Sequence record: MK327932.1
Length of the DNA stretch: 64,000 nt
Strand: one strand, 5' to 3'
Source of the DNA: Escherichia phage vB_EcoM_G2248
Each line of letters begins with the position of its first letter. The stretch's first letter is position 1. Both the position numbers and the translations under genes were made by a program. Below the pieces are notes generated by a model that worked only from the letters and a program-made list of their open reading frames with translations, was not told where the DNA came from and did not search any database. Shown one piece after another: positions 1 through 56,791 of this stretch.

Positions 1-2109
1 TTAAAATTTAACATTCTTAACCAGTTTCATAAAGTCTTGTGCGCGTTTGTCGTTATGTAGAATACGATACCAGTTATCTACAATATCATACAGTAACGGG
101 CTATTCTCTTTAAACTTCGCACAAACTGCTTTAATTCGTTCGTTTGCTGCCGTGAATTTTTCATCACAGATCTTTTTAGTTTCTTCGTCCATAATCCAAC
201 GAGTATGAAGGAGTAACTTGGAAACCTCTTTATTATAATGGCGACCGTACAGTCTGTCAATAAATTCTGGAATACAGCGTTCTAATTCATCGTCATGAAA
301 CAACATAGTGATCACACCCAGATATTCGCCATACCCCAGATGATTGGTCTTAACCTTCTTAGCCAGACCAGCCAGCTTACCGCGAACAAATTCTAGCGCA
401 CATTCCAATTGTTCGTCAACGAGATATTTTTGTGTCTCATTACGGGTAATAATATACTTTGTTACCCCGAAGTAGTCAAGCGCCATGTGTAATGTATTTT
501 CATTATAGATCGATTGACGGCTACGGCTTTCGAATGCATCCCCCACGCGGAACATGTGCAAGCCTGATAACTCGCGAATCTCTGCCGCTTTCATGTGATG
601 GCTGGTTTTATGCCAACTGTCACCAATCTTTTCCATGATATACACGTTAGGTAGCTTAGGAGTAGCTTCACGTTGTGTACGCTCGGTCTTCTCCGGCTTA
701 ACTGCTTTAGCACGCAGATCATCGGCCTCAGACACTTTAATCACGGTCATTTCAGATTCATCATAATACTGTTTGATGTACTCGAAAGTCTCCATATGTT
801 TTTCGTTGTTCTGACGGAACACCAGTACCTTTTTATTGATGCCGTATTCCTGGACCATGCCGTTAAGAGTCAGTGCACGCAGTTTCGGTTTATCGGTATC
901 ATCAATAAGACACAGAATATCTTCTTTATGCATCCATACAAAATGCGTAATGTTGTATTGACTGCTAACGAAAGCAGGGCGCAATTTACTGATTGTGTGT
1001 CGAGTACGATACAGAGTATACACTTGACCTTCTACGTCATTAGGCGAATCTTTACCAGCATTAACAAACTTATTATAGATTTCTACCGGATCATCCCATT
1101 GTCCGATCTTACCCATCTTGCTAATAATATTGCGTTGAGTCGATGAATACTCGCTCATAAATTGCGCAAGTTTACGCTCTGTTTTAATGTTGGCGATCTT
1201 CTCTTTGACCTTTTCCAACATCATTTCATTGATTTCTGCAATACGTTTTTCGATGTTCGCTTTAGTCTCAATTGACAAGTGAACTTCTTCACGCGATGGC
1301 ATCAGGTCCAGATCACCCAAATCAAAATTAATGTAAATGGTCTGGTGCTGACGGTTTACAGCTTCTAACCATGTTCCGCGAACATATTCATACGGGATCG
1401 GATACTGAATCTTACCCATGATTGCATATACTACATAGGAATCGTTATCACGCCCATTACAAACATAATAATTATCAAAGCTAGGGAAATAATTAATTTC
1501 GATTGCATTGATATTAGGTTTGTGTTCCCCAAAATGACGCAGTACAAATTGCGCTTCTCGATGCCATGTCTGAATATCTTTTTCTTTCACTGGAATAGTG
1601 ATTTTCAGACCATTGTCTTCATCAGTCGGTTCGTCGAAAATCTGCACCATTTTCGGCATAGAGTTTTGCACAAATGCCGTAAAGCCATAAGCGCGACCAT
1701 TGTAACAGTTTACGATTGTAAAGGTGTCAGTGTAGCTATAAGCAGATTTCGCACCTAAACCAAAAGATCCGATATAATCATTAGTTTGGTCTTTTGTTGA
1801 TTCAAAGTAAACCGTAAACAATTGTTCTAATTCTTTCTTAGACGGAATACCAGTACCATAATCACGCACAGAAAAATACGGTTCGATTGCAGTCGGTAAA
1901 TGAATATCAAACGGACGATCTAAGGTTCCGGCTTCTTTGTGAGTGTCGGTAGCATTGCACGAATACTCACGGACGCAAGCACGCTCACAATATTGATAAG
2001 TGTTCTTAGAAAGCACCATAAAAGCCTTGCTACTTGCTTTCAGTGAAAAATCAACCGCACCGCTCAAGTCACTGCCAAATACTTCTTCATTATCAATATG
2101 CATTTTCAT
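1..2109 (-). CDS. rIIA: rIIA-like protein with N-terminal GHKL-type ATPase motifs
   Basis: 702-aa ORF, stop at nt 1-3, ATG at 2107-2109 with GAGGA SD; GHKL G1/G2-like boxes RDYGTGIP and GSFGLGAKS; first gene of T4-like order next to topoisomerase. Confidence 0.75.
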   Translation of the reverse strand: MKMHIDNEEVFGSDLSGAVDFSLKASSKAFMVLSKNTYQYCERACVREYSCNATDTHKEAGTLDRPFDIHLPTAIEPYFSVRDYGTGIPSKKELEQLFTVYFESTKDQTNDYIGSFGLGAKSAYSYTDTFTIVNCYNGRAYGFTAFVQNSMPKMVQIFDEPTDEDNGLKITIPVKEKDIQTWHREAQFVLRHFGEHKPNINAIEINYFPSFDNYYVCNGRDNDSYVVYAIMGKIQYPIPYEYVRGTWLEAVNRQHQTIYINFDLGDLDLMPSREEVHLSIETKANIEKRIAEINEMMLEKVKEKIANIKTERKLAQFMSEYSSTQRNIISKMGKIGQWDDPVEIYNKFVNAGKDSPNDVEGQVYTLYRTRHTISKLRPAFVSSQYNITHFVWMHKEDILCLIDDTDKPKLRALTLNGMVQEYGINKKVLVFRQNNEKHMETFEYIKQYYDESEMTVIKVSEADDLRAKAVKPEKTERTQREATPKLPNVYIMEKIGDSWHKTSHHMKAAEIRELSGLHMFRVGDAFESRSRQSIYNENTLHMALDYFGVTKYIITRNETQKYLVDEQLECALEFVRGKLAGLAKKVKTNHLGYGEYLGVITMLFHDDELERCIPEFIDRLYGRHYNKEVSKLLLHTRWIMDEETKKICDEKFTAANERIKAVCAKFKENSPLLYDIVDNWYRILHNDKRAQDFMKLVKNVKF

Positions 2110-32820: not shown

Positions 32821-33330
32821 TCAAATAATTTTCACTGGAATACTATTAACAATCTTGTATTGTACTTGATTGTCGGACCCACGCCACGGTTTTTTCGTTG
32901 GCATGTCTTTAATATACCGACCATCGATGAACATGTCAACTGATTCTACAATTTTTCTTTGCTCATCATTCAATTGGTCAAGGGTATAACCGGACCATAG
33001 CCAAATATCTTTATTTGGCATCCATGATTTTACTTCATCGATGATCCGCTGTACACCCTTTAAATTGCGTTTATACAGTGGATCGCCACCTAAGAATGTT
33101 AGCCCCTGAATAAAATCAGGTCTAAGCAGATCCAGAATCAATCCCATTGTATCATCGGTGAATGGTTCCCCGTTCTTAGGATTGAGTATGCTAGCATTAA
33201 AGCAACCATCACATGCGTGTGAACATCCGGTAACGTAAAGGGAGACTCTCACTCCCTCACCGTTAACCATATCACAATCTTTAATATCGGCATAGCGTAG
33301 TTTGCCGTATGTATCAGAACTCATATTCAA
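32821..33330 (-). CDS. nrdG: anaerobic ribonucleotide reductase activating protein NrdG (radical SAM)
   Basis: 169 aa; CxxxCxxC cluster CSHACDGC; adjacent to nrdD. Confidence 0.85.
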   Translation of the reverse strand: MNMSSDTYGKLRYADIKDCDMVNGEGVRVSLYVTGCSHACDGCFNASILNPKNGEPFTDDTMGLILDLLRPDFIQGLTFLGGDPLYKRNLKGVQRIIDEVKSWMPNKDIWLWSGYTLDQLNDEQRKIVESVDMFIDGRYIKDMPTKKPWRGSDNQVQYKIVNSIPVKII

Positions 33331-34726: not shown

Positions 34727-36589
34727 TTACATGTGCTTAACGCGGTTTACCATCTCGGAGTGTTTCCCGTGGTTGAATGGACGCAGATCAACAGATCCAA
34801 GATATCCACTAACGCGACGGATAACATTCATCTTTTCCAGATTGTCATTGCCGCAATCAGGACAAACAAAACCAGACTCGGTCGCTCTCATTTCCTTAGT
34901 AGATCCGCATACATGACATACATCAGAAGGAGTATTAACACCGAAGTAGTGCAATTTATCCATTGCATAGTCTACTACAGTTTCAAGACCTTTCAGGTTG
35001 TTTTTCATGTCTGGGAACTCAACATAAGAGATCATGCCACCGGACGCCAGCCAGTGATAATCTTTCTCAAAGTCGATTTTCTCAAATGGAGTGACTTTCC
35101 GGTCTACGTCAAGGTGGAATGAGTTGGTGTACCAGTCTTTATCGGTAGCACCCTTAACAATACCAAATTGCTCTCGGTCCAGTCGATTAAATCGATAGCA
35201 AAGGCTCTCGGCTGGCGTACCGTAAAGACTAAACCCAAGTCCGGTTTCATCCTTCCATTTTTCAGTATAATGACGCAAGATCTTAAGAATATGTTTACCG
35301 TATCGCTGCGCATCTTCCGAATCAAACGGATGAACACCAAACAGGACGCTCAATACCTCATGTAAACCAATATATCCAAGAGAGATACTAGCGCGACCAT
35401 CTTTCAGAACTTCCAAAATTTCATCGTTTTGATGAATACGGAAAAATGCACCTTCTGTATACAGTACAGGAGCAACATTGGCTTTAGCCCCTTTTAAAGC
35501 GTCTACGCGACTCATGAGCGCATCAAAGCAAATAGGCATACGATTAGCTAGCTCTTGTTCGAATAGCTCAATTCTGCGCATTACAGACGCTTTACCAGCA
35601 CGACGCGCGGCAATAAGGGCAATACGCGGAAGATTTAGAGTCACAACACCTAAGTTATTACGTCCGTCTAATACTTCTTCGCCTTTCTCATTATGCCACA
35701 CACCCAGGAAGCTACGACAACCCATCGGGCTAACCGGAACACTAGATCCAGTGATACTACGGTTATTCTTCGCAGAGATATAATCAGGGTAAAGACGCTT
35801 ACTAGAACATTCCAATGCAAGTTGCTTAATGTCGTAGTTCGGATCTTCCGGTTTAAGGTTTAATCCTTCTTCTAAGAACATCACCAGCTTAGGAAACACC
35901 GGAGTTATACCGTCTTTACCTAAACCTTTAGTTCGAACTTTCAGGATCGCTTTCTGAATCAGTTTTTCTTCCCAGCTAGTACCCATACCAAAGGTTAAAG
36001 TCACAAAAGGCGTTTGACCGTTGGTGGAGAACAAAGTGTTGATTTCATATTCCAACGCTTGATACCCGTCTAGCGTTTCTTTTTCTGTCTTCTCTTGTGC
36101 ATAGAGAGTATCAGCTTTGATTCCGTAGGTTTCGGCATCAGCAAGGTGTTTATGATATGTTTTCTCAACGTATGGCGCTAAAACCTGATCGATGTTTGCA
36201 ATTGTGGTCCCGCCATATTGATGACTTGCCACCTGTGCGATAATTTGAGCGGTTACAGCACAAGCAACGCCGATCGATTTCGGACTTTCGATTTGTGCGC
36301 TACCCAATTTAAAACCATTCTCTAACATGTCTTTGAGATTAACAAGACAGCAGTTAGTAAACGGCATAGCGGGTGCATAATCCATATCATGATAATGAAT
36401 ATCACCATCTACATGCGCTTTATAGATGTGCTCAGGTAACACGGTTTTAGCAATCTGTTTAGACACAGCACCAGCAATCAGATCTCGACGTGTCGGGAAT
36501 GTTCGCGCGTCTTTGTTCGCGTTCTCTTTGCTTACTTCGTTTTCTTTACCCGTTGCGATCTCTGTAATGTCTTTGATTAGTTTTTCCAT
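34727..36589 (-). CDS. nrdD: anaerobic ribonucleoside-triphosphate reductase NrdD
   Basis: 620 aa, uninterrupted; C-terminal zinc ribbon CHVCG...CPDCG. Confidence 0.9.
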   Translation of the reverse strand: MEKLIKDITEIATGKENEVSKENANKDARTFPTRRDLIAGAVSKQIAKTVLPEHIYKAHVDGDIHYHDMDYAPAMPFTNCCLVNLKDMLENGFKLGSAQIESPKSIGVACAVTAQIIAQVASHQYGGTTIANIDQVLAPYVEKTYHKHLADAETYGIKADTLYAQEKTEKETLDGYQALEYEINTLFSTNGQTPFVTLTFGMGTSWEEKLIQKAILKVRTKGLGKDGITPVFPKLVMFLEEGLNLKPEDPNYDIKQLALECSSKRLYPDYISAKNNRSITGSSVPVSPMGCRSFLGVWHNEKGEEVLDGRNNLGVVTLNLPRIALIAARRAGKASVMRRIELFEQELANRMPICFDALMSRVDALKGAKANVAPVLYTEGAFFRIHQNDEILEVLKDGRASISLGYIGLHEVLSVLFGVHPFDSEDAQRYGKHILKILRHYTEKWKDETGLGFSLYGTPAESLCYRFNRLDREQFGIVKGATDKDWYTNSFHLDVDRKVTPFEKIDFEKDYHWLASGGMISYVEFPDMKNNLKGLETVVDYAMDKLHYFGVNTPSDVCHVCGSTKEMRATESGFVCPDCGNDNLEKMNVIRRVSGYLGSVDLRPFNHGKHSEMVNRVKHM

Positions 36590-51934: not shown

Positions 51935-52525
51935 TCAATAGCGTTTAGTCTTAAGAATGCCTTTACTCTTTAGATGGTTGGCCTTTTTTAGTACGTCATC
52001 AGCATAACCTAATCCGGCTTTATAGTTCCATCCAGCATTGTAAGAAGCTAGCGCGAGTCGGATATTACCGTTTCGAACATCCAGCCAGTATGCTAACTCA
52101 TCCATCGCGTAGAATGCAGAAACCTCGCGATTCATGATAAAGTTGATAGTCTGGCGATCACTCATTTTAACACCGCGCTTTGCATTTTTCGCTTTCACCG
52201 TTTTAAGGTAATTTTGAAATAATCCATAAGCATGATGATTTTTCTTTGGTGCTAAGTTTGCACCCGCGCTTGATTCTTGCCATGCGATACCCGCCAGGAT
52301 GTGGCCTAAACCCTTTCCGTCATAGCGAATATTCGGATGGTCATTTTTCAACTTACCGCTTTTCTCGAATTGTTCGCCATATTGATAGGCGAAATGTAAA
52401 TTATCTAGTTGGTGTGCTGTAAAGTTGTCTATCGGCGCTTTTTTGATCGGTGCGCTAGTCGATGCGTGTGTAGCACCAACGGCTAGTGACAGACTCAATA
52501 CTATCGCTTTTAGAACTTTTAACAT
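51935..52525 (-). CDS. secreted lytic transglycosylase (SLT domain)
   Basis: 196 aa; signal peptide; SLT catalytic motif GIAWQESS and AYNAGWN. Confidence 0.65.
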   Translation of the reverse strand: MLKVLKAIVLSLSLAVGATHASTSAPIKKAPIDNFTAHQLDNLHFAYQYGEQFEKSGKLKNDHPNIRYDGKGLGHILAGIAWQESSAGANLAPKKNHHAYGLFQNYLKTVKAKNAKRGVKMSDRQTINFIMNREVSAFYAMDELAYWLDVRNGNIRLALASYNAGWNYKAGLGYADDVLKKANHLKSKGILKTKRY

Positions 52526-52612: not shown

Positions 52613-53035
52613 TTATTGGTCTACCTTCAAAACAACCGCCGACATTTTACCCGCCAGTCGTTTTGGATTCTCTATAATCATTCGACAGCATAGACCGTGA
52701 TATGGCTTACCCTCTTCGATTAGATCTACTGTCATCCCGATCCACATGTTGCCGTCAGTAATTTCTAATCGATTAGGTCGGTCTTCCATTTTCAGGAAGT
52801 CGAAGATCTCCGGCAAACGAGTTTCTATCTTATTGAATAATTCCATTGTCTTATGTTCATCGATATGACGATCGGTTAGACGGTCGATCATATGCGGACT
52901 AAAGCGAATGAAAATATACTCACCGTAACCATCATTCAAGCACTTTTCTTTGATCTGCGCATTGGTTTTGCGCATTTCGGTTTCGAAGAATCTACGCAGC
53001 TTACTACGGCGAACATGTACGTTAATTGTTTCCAT
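52613..53035 (-). CDS. regB: RegB endoribonuclease
   Basis: start at internal ATG (METINVHVRRSKLRRFFE...) paralleling T4 RegB; RLEITDGN block. Confidence 0.6.
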   Translation of the reverse strand: METINVHVRRSKLRRFFETEMRKTNAQIKEKCLNDGYGEYIFIRFSPHMIDRLTDRHIDEHKTMELFNKIETRLPEIFDFLKMEDRPNRLEITDGNMWIGMTVDLIEEGKPYHGLCCRMIIENPKRLAGKMSAVVLKVDQ

Positions 53036-53039
53036 TTTA

Positions 53040-53375
53040 TTATCCTTTCTTAAACAAATTGCGAATCCAGTATACAAACGGGATTTCTTTAAACTTGAAT
53101 TTCTCTATAGTTAATTCTTTAGTAGCAAGATGAATACCATAAGCATCATGTGTCACGATATGCCATTTTCTATAGTCCAAATGTGAACAACCGTCTGGAT
53201 CTAGGTTAATAAGAGTTTCTCGCTCACTAGGATTATTTTTCCACAATTTTGTAATAGGATCGCACATAATTCGACCTAGCGTACCATGAATAATCTCACA
53301 ACGGTAAAGTTTTCCAGCAGTGAGATAGGCGCACCCGTCATAGTCGGTATAAACAAACACTTCTTTAATACTCAT
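53040..53375 (-). CDS. hypothetical protein (triplet family, CxHLD...W)
   Basis: track ORF overlaps promoter 53404-53432; ATG at 53373-53375 (MSIKEVF...). Confidence 0.45.
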   Translation of the reverse strand: MSIKEVFVYTDYDGCAYLTAGKLYRCEIIHGTLGRIMCDPITKLWKNNPSERETLINLDPDGCSHLDYRKWHIVTHDAYGIHLATKELTIEKFKFKEIPFVYWIRNLFKKG

Positions 53376-53403
53376 TTTAATACTCCTTTGTTTCGATGGG
53401 GGT

Positions 53404-53432
53404 ATATTACTACCCCCGTTTTGTTGTGTCAA
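53404..53432 (-). promoter_or_regulatory. early promoter cassette, stem-loop enclosing the -10
   Basis: TTGACA-N17-TAATAT within GGGGGTAGTAATATACCCCC. Confidence 0.5.
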
Positions 53433-53693
53433 CTACTTTTTCAAGATTTTTTTAATTGCGTTCCAAAGACCTTTATTCTCAGGTTGTTTTGGTTCTTCGA
53501 TCAGTGTCCATGTTCGACCGTCTAAGTGTGCACAATTTTTAAGACAAATAAAAATCTGGTGTCCCTTATCATCACGGATATAACCACTATTCGCAAATCT
53601 TTCATGTGGTGTATATTCATACAGTGTATTTGGTGTAATATACTTGCGGTTACTATAAGGTGTCATCACATACATCATGGTACTAACTCCCAA
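53433..53693 (-). CDS. hypothetical protein (triplet family)
   Basis: 86 aa; ...GYIRDDKGHQIFICLKNCAHLDGRTW. Confidence 0.45.
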   Translation of the reverse strand: MGVSTMMYVMTPYSNRKYITPNTLYEYTPHERFANSGYIRDDKGHQIFICLKNCAHLDGRTWTLIEEPKQPENKGLWNAIKKILKK

Positions 53694-53869
53694 CGATCAC
53701 CGCGAAGATGAGAACATCCACCATCAAGAAGTATCGTAATACGATAACCTATATCATCTTTGATGTAACCGATTGTCGGTGGATTTTCGTCGTCTCGTGC
53801 CGGGGTAAAATCATACATCTTTCCGGGCGTAATATCTTGTCCTTTATTACTATTGGTATAAACTTGCAT
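53675..53869 (-). CDS. hypothetical protein (triplet family)
   Basis: 64 aa; ...GYIKDDIGYRITILLDGGCSHLRGDRW. Confidence 0.45.
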   Translation of the reverse strand: MQVYTNSNKGQDITPGKMYDFTPARDDENPPTIGYIKDDIGYRITILLDGGCSHLRGDRWELVP

Positions 53870-53890
53870 TTTCTTAATCTCCTATATTAA

Positions 53891-54589
53891 CTAACCACGG
53901 GTATAGTGTTCCAGAACAACGGTCAGATGAATATATTCTAATAGATCTTTCCAAAAGTCAACATCTGGTTCTTCCGGCATACCGTTTTTCTTTGCCTCTT
54001 CACGCGCGAGTTTAACACGCTCGTAGAGATCTTTCAATTCTTCCCGCACATTATCAAAGGTTCTTTCTCCTAACTTACACGCTAAGATAGAAGAACGTCG
54101 CGCGAGCGGGAATTGTAGATCACCAGTTTGATAGATTTCAAGTAGCTGATAACCAACACGCAGAGCATGAGAAAGATCTTTCCAGTTACTGAAATACTTT
54201 TCAGATTTGGCTACCTGTTTCTTGAGATAACCAGACAAACCCCACATACCAACATGATAGAATTTATCGCGATGTGTTCGGATGTATTCCCATTCTCTGG
54301 AGGATTCGATCAACATGTTACTAGGCGCGTGCACCATATCAATAGCGCCGATATCACCTTTACATGCCAGATTGATAAACCGTTTTAGACTGAACATATT
54401 AACGTCAATATCGTCTTTGGTGTTCTTGATACCTTGACCGCTAGTGCTTTGGTCATAGTGTTCTTTCATCGATCCTAAGATAATTTCTTTCGCAGTCGGA
54501 ACAAAGATACCACGATAATCTTTATCGGAATTTTCAGTATCAAGGCCGTATAAGTGAGATCCGAAGACCATTTTAACCATTGTATGCAT
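53891..54589 (-). CDS. nucleotidyltransferase-fold protein (Pol-beta-like minimal NTase)
   Basis: 232 aa; hG[GS]x9-13DxD signature FGSHLYGLDTENSDKD, downstream acidic DIDV, helical C-terminal half. Confidence 0.5.
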   Translation of the reverse strand: MHTMVKMVFGSHLYGLDTENSDKDYRGIFVPTAKEIILGSMKEHYDQSTSGQGIKNTKDDIDVNMFSLKRFINLACKGDIGAIDMVHAPSNMLIESSREWEYIRTHRDKFYHVGMWGLSGYLKKQVAKSEKYFSNWKDLSHALRVGYQLLEIYQTGDLQFPLARRSSILACKLGERTFDNVREELKDLYERVKLAREEAKKNGMPEEPDVDFWKDLLEYIHLTVVLEHYTRG

Positions 54590-54638
54590 AATTAAACCCT
54601 CAGTTGATTAAGAGATTGCATCATATCATCATAAAACG

Positions 54639-54664
54639 AAAAAGCCAACCCTTTTCGGATTGGC
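54639..54664 (-). terminator. rho-independent terminator after the GrcA-like gene
   Basis: hairpin GCCAAUCC-GAAAAG-GGUUGGC + U5. Confidence 0.55.
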
Positions 54665-54675
54665 TTGATGAAAAA

Positions 54676-55092
54676 TTAGAGAGATTCGGTAAAGGTACGA
54701 GCGATAACATCACGTTGCTGGTCTGGAGTCAGACTATTGAAGCGCACTGCGTAACCAGAAACGCGAATTGTAAGCTGCGGGTACTTCTCAGGATTAGCAA
54801 CAGCATCCAGAAGAAGGTCGCGACTCATCACATTGATATTCGCGTGCTGACCACCTTCGACAACCGGAGCACCATTATCTACAATCACCGGACGGAAGCT
54901 AGTTGTGTGCAGTGCCAGCGAATCGACGTCTTCTTCGGTGATCACATGGTCTTCTGCGAAAGTTTTACTAACAATTACTTTAGCGCCGATCAGTGCTTTC
55001 GGTTCGGATACCAAAATCATAGGCGCGAAGTGTCCACCGATAATAGTACCTTTATGCTCACCTTTCATGATTTGAATTGCTTTAAATTCCAT
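54676..55092 (-). CDS. autonomous glycyl radical cofactor (GrcA/YfiD-like)
   Basis: 138 aa; C-terminal glycyl-radical signature [32 protein letters not shown]. Confidence 0.8.
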
Positions 55093-55226
55093 AATTCACC
55101 TCTTATAGATCAGGACGTTCGTCATTAATTTTACCAACCAAAACACCATAGAGTTTATCAGGTTGGATTTTACGATTCTTTTTAATTGTAGCACGAAATC
55201 GACGAGCTACGCTATCTTTATTTTCA

Positions 55227-55718
55227 TTAGTTGATACCTAAGCCAATGAAAATAGGTTGGTCTTCTACATTACCCATCCCAACACTAAGTCGATTCAATT
55301 CTAAAAACTGCAATACGCTGTCAGTAAATCCGCGCATGGTAGTATCTAGGATAAAAATTGTTTTGTCAAGACTACGACCTCGCCATGTGATCGGATTCAG
55401 GAAAGTTCGGATCGACGTACAATCTACATCTGAAATATTTACATTTTCACCACGACCGCGATCTCGGATCGTTTTGGCATGTTCCCGCGTTGTTGAAACG
55501 ATAAAGACACTATAGCCTTTTCGCGTATAATGGTCATATAACTTGATTGTAGCGTCTGTATGCCCTGTCTGACGGCCTAAATTGATTGAGACAATGGAAT
55601 CTAGGTCATCAGCAAAATTGCGTCGCTTACGGCGTTCCATGATGCCATTTACAGCAGATACACACGCAGCATAAATCAAATCTTTACTTTCTAATTCTAA
55701 ATCAATGTCAATATTCAT
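55227..55718 (-). CDS. hypothetical protein
   Basis: ATG at 55716-55718 with GGAG SD (MNIDIDLELE...). Confidence 0.45.
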   Translation of the reverse strand: MNIDIDLELESKDLIYAACVSAVNGIMERRKRRNFADDLDSIVSINLGRQTGHTDATIKLYDHYTRKGYSVFIVSTTREHAKTIRDRGRGENVNISDVDCTSIRTFLNPITWRGRSLDKTIFILDTTMRGFTDSVLQFLELNRLSVGMGNVEDQPIFIGLGIN

Positions 55719-55780
55719 GGTAAAGTCTCCAGTGAACGGGGAGAGATCCTTAGATTGTCTCCCCATTGATGGTTAATATT

Positions 55781-56356
55781 TTATTTTGGATCTGGGAAAT
55801 TCAATAGAGCATATTCTCCATAAAATTTCCTAGCTGCATTATCATAAGCGATTGCAGCTTCGATTTCTGTGTCATATTGTCCAAGAACATGTCTTTGTAG
55901 GTTGACCATTATACTAGCTCTCCATTTCTTACGCAAATCCTTCCTGTTACACTTACTAACACCCTTATACACACTAGAAAACTTTTTAGACTTCTTCTTT
56001 CTATTATGTTGATTTTGCGCGTCGGTTGCCTCCCTAAGATTTGGAGGATTGTTATTAGCAGGATTACCGTCAATATGATCAATTAATCTAACTTGCGTCC
56101 CATGTTCTAGAAACCAAACAACCCTATGCACGAATAGATGAACTCTAGGAAGACCGTCATCTCTACTATGCCAAAATCTAAGATGACCATCTTTATTTGT
56201 TCTGACTTTAACTAAATCGCCGTGTTTATATCTACTCCCTAATGGTCGTCCTTTGATAGCTTTACTATCGACTCTATAATATAAGATACCCTCTATATGA
56301 GCATATCTAAGTTTTATCTCGTTTTGTAGGGATTCATCCCAATATTTAAAAGCCAT
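55781..56356 (-). CDS. HNH homing endonuclease with C-terminal AP2 DNA-binding domain
   Basis: 191 aa; HNH motif IDHIDGNPANNNPPNLREATDAQNQHN; AP2-like YKGVS...WRASI...YDNAARKFYGEYALLNFP; AT-rich. Confidence 0.75.
   Translation of the reverse strand: MAFKYWDESLQNEIKLRYAHIEGILYYRVDSKAIKGRPLGSRYKHGDLVKVRTNKDGHLRFWHSRDDGLPRVHLFVHRVVWFLEHGTQVRLIDHIDGNPANNNPPNLREATDAQNQHNRKKKSKKFSSVYKGVSKCNRKDLRKKWRASIMVNLQRHVLGQYDTEIEAAIAYDNAARKFYGEYALLNFPDPK
55781..56356 (-). mobile_element. free-standing HNH-AP2 homing endonuclease gene
   Basis: domain architecture typical of phage homing endonucleases; compositional shift; own SD and a hairpin upstream. Confidence 0.5.
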
Positions 56357-56401
56357 TTTATAATCCTCACAAAGCCAGCGATTAAGCTGGCTTGATTTTA
56401 G

Positions 56402-56791
56402 TTATACCGGGTCTGGATATACCTTTTTATCGAGTTCCATATGCGGTCCGTCTTTAAAAGTAACCCAATCAACACCGCAGATAACAGGAACACCCAATTC
56501 TCGACCAGCTTGTTTAAATGCATCCGCGATCATGCGGTAGTATTTCATGTTCCATGTATCCTTATCTTTCGGATACGCTACAACGTCAACCGCGAAACCG
56601 TGAAGATGACGAGATTTCATAGTCTTAGATTTACCTTCCGCAACATATTTCTTTTGCGTTTCTAGACTACGTACACCTTCCGTAATACCAAAATCGACCG
56701 GAGTCAGTTCTAACGCACGATGAACGACTTTTACCAGGTCAGGATGCACACCAACAAGCCGATCTTTGCTTCTTTGAGATAATTTAAACAT
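56402..56791 (-). CDS. peptidase M15-type cell-wall peptidase (candidate endolysin)
   Basis: 129 aa; zinc-ligand pattern SRHLHGFAVD ... DGPHME as in L-Ala-D-Glu peptidase endolysins. Confidence 0.65.
   Translation of the reverse strand: MFKLSQRSKDRLVGVHPDLVKVVHRALELTPVDFGITEGVRSLETQKKYVAEGKSKTMKSRHLHGFAVDVVAYPKDKDTWNMKYYRMIADAFKQAGRELGVPVICGVDWVTFKDGPHMELDKKVYPDPV

Follow-up and report, generated by a model that had tools for sequence, protein, structure and literature searches.

The window analysed here, a 64,000-nucleotide stretch of Escherichia phage vB_EcoM_G2248 (MK327932.1), is Krischvirus genome sequence (RB49-like, Straboviridae) and carries on its minus strand the gene vs.6, which codes for a small GrcA/Vs.6-like protein (Table 1). 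The boundaries given for this gene by an earlier sequence-only reading are exact when the stop codon is counted, and the strand, which had been left unstated, is the minus one, with the ATG at 55092..55090 and the TAA at 54678..54676. The Shine-Dalgarno sequence is strong, and a terminator-like hairpin with a GC-rich stem begins 10 nt past the stop codon; its RNA fold reaches -19 kcal/mol (z -4.5), a stability equalled in none of 200 shuffles. The hairpin is kept in the phages kvi and JSE, and both the ribosome-binding site and the hairpin are kept in related phages; vs.6 is a real gene with its own ribosome-binding site and terminator. The promoter scan gave only weak sigma-70-like matches (14 against 9.3 +/- 3.0 in shuffles), and vs.6 is probably co-transcribed with the upstream minus-strand genes. 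The Rfam scan of 53500..56500 gave no match. A plus-strand ORF of 174 aa that overlaps the gene (54604..55128) has no PHROG or family match and was treated as an antisense artefact.

Table 1. Features of the vs.6 locus and of the nrdD and nrdG genes, in positions of the window
Feature	Position	Strand	Evidence and remarks
GrcA/Vs.6-like CDS, 138 aa, 15.1 kDa	54676..55092 (stop included)	-	ORF list; Pfam, NCBIfam, PHROG and PDB matches; nucleotide identity to kvi
Ribosome-binding site AAGAGGTG	55097..55104	-	Read from sequence; 4 nt 5' of the ATG; same in phage kvi
N-terminal half, residues 1-71	54880..55092	-	Corresponds to disordered residues 1-60 of E. coli YfiD; alignments
C-terminal glycyl-radical domain, residues 72-138	54679..54879	-	Equivalent to YfiD 61-127 and PflB 693-759; phmmer to 6owr and 1h16; alignment
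Recombinant patch, gene nt 249-298, residues 84-100	54795..54844	-	50 nt, JSE-type inside an RB49-type gene
Glycyl-radical signature RVSGYAVRF, residues 110-118	54739..54765	-	Sequence; invariant alignment columns
G113 codon GGT	54754..54756	-	Aligned with PflB G734 and GrcA G102
Intrinsic-terminator-like hairpin, 10-bp stem AAGCCAATCC/GGGTTGGCTT, then T-run	54632..54666	-	Terminator scan
vs.8-like ORF, phrog_1488	55227..55766		Matched to PHROG; annotated vs.8 in Sf20 and JSE
regB	52613..53077		In T4-type order
SLT-domain ORF corresponding to vs.1	51935..52525		In T4-type order
nrdD, anaerobic class III ribonucleotide reductase	34727..36589	-	PF13597 E 1.4e-175; Gly_radical E 5.6e-23
nrdG, radical-SAM activase of NrdD	32821..33330	-	PF13353 Fer4_12 E 1.8e-43; Radical_SAM E 1e-4

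The genes of the region are arranged as endolysin, vs.8-like, vs.6, an nrdC.11-like nucleotidyltransferase, three small ORFs, regB, the SLT-domain ORF, vs, and tk, and the succession of vs.8, vs.6, regB, vs.1, vs, and tk is the same in kvi, PP01, and T4. The ORF upstream of vs.6 is vs.8-like and not a pyruvate formate-lyase (PFL) barrel, so that the product is a stand-alone small protein. The T4 homologue anticipated by the sequence-only reading exists, being the vs.6 product Y06I, annotated GrcA in NC_000866; judged by its sequence, the window gene is its counterpart, an ordinary and already annotated member of the family. In particular, it is 97.1% identical at the nucleotide level to a kvi gene annotated "autonomous glycyl radical cofactor" and 93% identical to the copies in RB49, ECD7, Sf20, and others, with 63 close records in all; the Sf20 copy bears the label "similar to phage T4 Vs.6; predicted glycine radical domain", and JSE and RB49 use the name vs.6. 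Homologues were found by tblastn in about 1580 of 50,697 phage records, comprising T4-like phages of Escherichia, Salmonella, Klebsiella, Enterobacter, Yersinia, and Aeromonas as well as T5-like Demerecviridae and the jumbo Alcyoneusvirus. That vs.6 codes for a glycyl-radical protein is already known, from T4 Y06I in 2001, from RB49 in 2006, and from near-identical genes annotated GrcA; vs.6 matched Gly_radical in all six T4-like genomes of one survey, RB49 included (Nolan et al. 2006, PMC1524935).

The protein is made up of an N-terminal half, in which the motif KAIQI..KGTI and a further one of 12 residues are found, and a C-terminal domain that consists, in order, of a β-strand, the radical loop, and the helix at the C-terminus. 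The signature RVSGYAVRF, which the sequence-only reading had noticed near the C-terminus, is present there, and the match to Pfam PF01228 (Gly_radical) lies far beyond chance, with E 1.5e-15 and 58.1 bits against a gathering threshold of 22.2 over profile positions 65-106 of 106. The description as a GrcA-like stand-alone glycyl-radical protein is borne out by the best NCBIfam model, the GrcA equivalog TIGR04365 (E 4e-37, with residues 1-36 outside the HMM match), ahead of GrcA3, GrcA2, and the C-termini of PflB and further glycyl-radical enzymes, and by the best match among known structures, that of E. coli GrcA solved by NMR (6owr, phmmer E 5e-30); PflB (1h16 and others) comes second with E 4e-26. 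The PHROG 1209 profile is matched over its full length (positions 1-121 of 121) by residues 3-138, with E 1e-48. The window protein scores 127.3 bits with TIGR04365 and stays below the equivalog cutoff of 170 bits, which E. coli GrcA passes with 234; this is not read as a different function because the biochemically validated T4 Y06I, with 151.1 bits, fails as well. The cutoff parts bacterial from phage N-termini, not functions, and missing it says little about function.

The comparison with E. coli GrcA and the T4 homologue, which the sequence-only reading had named as a check, was carried out in a multiple alignment of E. coli GrcA, PflB, T4 Vs.6, and homologues from Klebsiella, jumbo, T5-like, and Providencia phages. 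The radical loop is wholly kept and the conserved glycine is in place; the phage, GrcA, and PflB sequences have 37 invariant columns, including P101, K103-P105, L107-N119, L121-T122, and R132-T135, and the L107-N119 block contains RVSGYAVRF with the column of G113. A single-sequence AlphaFold2 model of the protein was too poor to interpret (mean pLDDT 43.1, pTM 0.37); the fold of the C-terminal domain is settled by the 6owr match.

Validated spare-part proteins number just two, E. coli YfiD (GrcA) and T4 Y06I (Andorfer et al. 2021, PMC8683613). PFL is cut by oxygen at its G734 radical, and residues 61-127 of YfiD repeat the PflB segment 693-759, which comprises strand β10 (y-β1 in YfiD), the radical loop, and the helix at the C-terminus; catalysis does not depend on the disordered residues 1-60, but binding to cleaved PFL and efficient activation do, and the y-β1 strand has been proposed as a safety lever against activation of free YfiD, which is a poor substrate of PflA with a Km of about 100 µM (PMC8683613). 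According to the account of Wagner et al. (2001) given in PMC8683613, both YfiD and Y06I are activated by the PFL-activating enzyme (PFL-AE) and restore oxygen-cleaved PFL.

The window protein shares with T4 Vs.6 the gene position, the PHROG 1209 match, the stand-alone small size, and the N-terminal motifs KA.QI..G.HKGTI and A+.IVSKTF.ED, and its last 38 residues are identical to those of both T4 Vs.6 and E. coli GrcA save for D124, which replaces E. However, the overall identity to T4 Vs.6 is 59-62%, and about 55% by tblastn to homologues of T4-like phages such as PP01; of the two proteins, it is T4 Y06I that was tested biochemically. E. coli GrcA has the same plan, a variable N-terminal half followed by a C-terminal copy of PflB 693-759 with an identical radical loop, but its N-terminal half is weakly similar and the window gene is phage-encoded, in a region of early-gene type. 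The resemblance extends to the C-terminal domain of PflB (and TdcE): residues 77-138 align with PflB 698-759 without gaps and with 76% identity, the heptapeptide RVSGYAV is identical in PflB and GrcA, and M89 and N100 of the window allele agree with PflB rather than with GrcA. In contrast to PflB, the window protein has neither the 690-residue catalytic barrel nor Cys418/Cys419 and for this reason cannot be an enzyme alone. The same C-terminal domain occurs in T5-like Demerecviridae, in Providencia phage PR1, and in bacterial GrcA2 and GrcA3, with 74% identity over the last 62 residues and with matches of NF038360 and NF008341 to the window protein at E 1e-25 to 1e-28, but there the N-terminal halves are unrelated, and GrcA2 and GrcA3 have only about 80 aa.

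Two regions of this allele are variable. In the N-terminal half, an insertion of about 12 residues lies between KGTI and AKVIVSK that is absent from the T4, Klebsiella-phage, jumbo-phage, and E. coli proteins, and the alignments show a further 3-4 residues near position 60 relative to T4; the insertion is the main cause of the different lengths (138 aa in the window, 120 aa in T4, and 127 aa in E. coli). In the C-terminal domain, a 50-nt patch accounts for 21 of the 29 nucleotides at which the gene departs from RB49; the patch is common to JSE and mostly to kvi, and it alters two positions, L84 and V86, that hardly vary elsewhere in the strand equivalent to y-β1 (L84A, V86I). A derivation of the patch from E. 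coli grcA or pflB was rejected, as the nucleotide identity to these genes is about 70% and the patch is instead a JSE-type phage allele. In JSE (locus L092, vs.6 at 176..592), vs.6 is followed immediately downstream by a homing endonuclease gene, at the place occupied in the window by the nrdC.11-like gene. Since this endonuclease gene adjoins vs.6, co-conversion during homing is a plausible origin of the patch. L84A/V86I or the N-terminal insertion could change affinity.

The vs.6 gene is under purifying selection. Along the final 62 codons, 82% of the amino acids agree with E. coli GrcA but just 45% of third codon positions do, and among Krischvirus alleles dN/dS is 0.15-0.28 overall and 0-0.09, from small counts, in the N-terminal 76 codons; synonymous divergence alongside conserved amino acids speaks for a function that is maintained and compatible with PFL, and not for a recent capture. 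In T4, the last 180 nt of vs.6 (L005 3561..3740) are identical to K-12 grcA (L003 4070..4249) at 176 of 180 positions and the PP01 gene reaches 97%; the identity of the T4 gene to grcA falls abruptly to about 45% upstream, and the window gene has 73% over the same 180-nt stretch. For Tequatrovirus, the pattern suggests that host and phage recently exchanged just the glycyl-radical domain.

The most probable function of the phage protein, to which we assign a probability of roughly 0.8, would be the repair of oxygen-cleaved host PFL, with the radical installed on G113 by the host PflA. In this scheme, traces of oxygen in infected E. coli would react with the G734 radical of PFL and break the chain, leaving an inactive 1-733 fragment; the phage protein would bind this fragment, its N-terminal half aiding recognition, and its C-terminal 67 residues, nearly the same in sequence as PflB 693-759, would replace the lost β-strand, radical loop, and helix. 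The host activase PflA, a radical SAM enzyme, would then take a hydrogen atom from G113, and with the loop back in PFL's active site the radical could pass to Cys419/Cys418, so that the conversion of pyruvate and CoA to acetyl-CoA and formate would resume. The benefit to the phage may be that fermentative energy, acetyl-CoA, and formate are sustained during infection without remaking a 170-kDa enzyme. The E. coli host encodes pflB with pflA adjoining. A PflA homologue within 10 kb of grcA was found in none of the 80 IMG/VR loci listed, and reliance on the host activase fits the lack of a PflA-like gene near grcA in the loci scanned. Against this scheme count the literature searched, which yielded no phage-level phenotype of vs.6/grcA, the substitutions L84A and V86I, which lie in the β-strand expected to dock on PFL β9, and the N-terminal insertion, which falls in a region important in YfiD for cleaved-PFL binding and activation. 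On balance, the interpretation given by the sequence-only reading is supported, the rescue function being attributed to the vs.6 protein by homology; activation by PflA, binding to cleaved PFL, and any benefit to the phage are likewise inferred.

Other explanations of the gene have to be weighed against PFL rescue. The protein could be a decoy or inhibitor that soaks up PflA or occupies PFL and thereby stops the host's fermentation, or the decaying remnant of a captured host gene, and both the poor quality of free YfiD as a PflA substrate and the unusual β-strand substitutions of the window allele would suit such a role; however, T4 Y06I, as reported in the source cited above, restores PFL activity and does not inhibit it, the radical loop and helix do not vary across about 1580 phage records, which span three phage groups or more, and the pattern of synonymous divergence with amino-acid conservation points to a maintained function, which makes a decoy or remnant very unlikely. 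An origin as a chance ORF, or as a DNA repair gene of the denV type, is of practically negligible probability. The sequence-only reading had observed that the ORF is as long as denV, and this is accurate (T4 denV has 417 nt and 138 aa, and its place, between vs.8 and ipII, is in the same part of the T4 genome), but it had also held that the product is not a pyrimidine-dimer glycosylase, and BLASTP against T4 DenV indeed gave no alignment at E <= 100, so that length alone coincides; the glycyl-radical matches are highly significant and the gene is conserved in the 63 close and about 1580 distant phage records. A third possibility concerns the phage's own NrdD, whose C-terminus the protein might replace after oxygen cleavage. 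NrdD is also cut by oxygen at its radical glycine, its radical loop (residues 592-596) has the pentapeptide RVSGY that PFL and GrcA also carry, with a CxxC...CxxC zinc ribbon ahead of it, and grcA adjoins nrdD/nrdG in some phages; spare parts for other glycyl-radical enzymes have been the subject of speculation (PMC8683613). This role is nevertheless highly unlikely and was rejected on sequence, since the best BLASTP match to the window NrdD (E 1.7) covers the five residues RVSGY and nothing else is shared, whereas 62 residues align to PflB with 76% identity; in addition, the radical loop of NrdD comes after a zinc ribbon and has a different end (RVSGYLGSVDLRPFNHGK).

A different purpose, which would refine PFL rescue without replacing it, is the anaerobic supply of dNTPs, in which active PFL (or TdcE) would provide formate for NrdD and, in a stronger form, NrdG would activate G113. 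The sequence-only reading had taken the gene together with nrdD and nrdG as a sign of investment in anaerobic host metabolism; both genes are present in the window, at a distance of 18-22 kb from vs.6. Formate gives both reducing equivalents for most characterised class III ribonucleotide reductases, and a formate site has been proposed for T4 NrdD (PMC4493059). IMG/VR was scanned with the family alignment, and the 80 loci listed were checked for NrdD, NrdG, PflA, and a PflB barrel; ten of them were excluded as full-length bacterial pflB, leaving 70 stand-alone loci. These ten contigs (L060, L064, L065, L070, L072, L076, and L084-L087), with pflB genes 94-100% identical to E. coli PflB, represent bacterial DNA or the flanks of prophages instead of phage grcA. 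Five of the 70 stand-alone loci among those listed have both nrdD and nrdG on the same strand and no more than about 2 kb away, in two orders: nrdD-nrdG-vs.6-nrdC in the Aeromonas phages Aeh1 (L088 7659..10375), phiAS5, PX29, and phiWae14, where the annotated records agree, and nrdD-grcA-nrdA.1-nrdG in jumbo Klebsiella phages such as Muenster (L009 1..2651); contiguity of grcA with nrdD/nrdG is also listed for loci L018, L035, L041, and L059.

Because grcA clusters with nrdD/nrdG in other phages, these arrangements lend support to the idea of an anaerobic investment by the phage, which may hold for the window as well, and they suggest that formate supply to NrdD may be the selected benefit. 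In favour of a dNTP-supply purpose speak the role of formate as reductant of class III enzymes, the presence of both genes in the window, the same-strand contiguity in two unrelated arrangements, and the RVSGY at the radical glycine of the window NrdD. Against it stand the distance between the genes in the window, the adjacency in just those five loci, the T5-like loci, in which nrdD is absent within 10 kb, and the purely speculative nature of a cross-activation by NrdG. We regard this purpose as possible but unlikely, and a functional tie of vs.6 to the phage's nrdD/nrdG as conceivable from these arrangements. More doubtful still is a combined form in which phage GrcA would be part of an anaerobic DNA-precursor module rather than an aid to energy supply in general, providing formate via host PFL for NrdD and perhaps activated by NrdG in view of the RVSGY loop of NrdD, with the β-strand patch tuning activation; if true, it would explain the occurrence of grcA within the nrdD-nrdG cluster in Aeromonas T4-like and jumbo Klebsiella phages.

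On the PFL-rescue reading, vs.6 would be an auxiliary metabolic gene, a 15-kDa patch for an oxygen-damaged host enzyme of 170 kDa, and would suggest that the phage replicates in the gut under microaerobic or anaerobic conditions; the gene clustering suggests a possible coupling from PFL through formate to NrdD, and with it a physiological role in phages. The natural variation hits the two regions treated as regulatory by the YfiD model, and the natural alleles (RB49- versus JSE-type β-strand, T4- versus Krischvirus-type N-terminus) offer variants for the safety-lever and recognition model.

Some neighbouring ORFs of the minus strand deserve mention in their own right. Between the nrdC.11-like gene and regB, three tandem ORFs of 130, 86, and 64 aa (53040..53869) match the related families phrog_6261 and phrog_15978 and form a set of paralogues. 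A 41-aa ORF stands immediately before vs.6 in kvi (kvi_239), Sf20 (gp241, labelled 'similar to RB49 gp100'), and JSE; in the window (55103..55227) its frame is broken by the loss of one A from the run next to the ATG, from ATGAAAAATAAAG to ATGAAAATAAAG at 55221..55224, and the remaining stretch is about 96% identical to kvi; it is either a pseudogene or the result of a homopolymer sequencing error. Between the endolysin gene and the vs.8-like gene, an ORF of 191 aa (55781..56356) resembles homing endonucleases with HNH_3 and AP2 domains (phrog_99, E 1e-43) and is a mobile insertion that varies among Krischvirus genomes, since kvi has no gene at this site.
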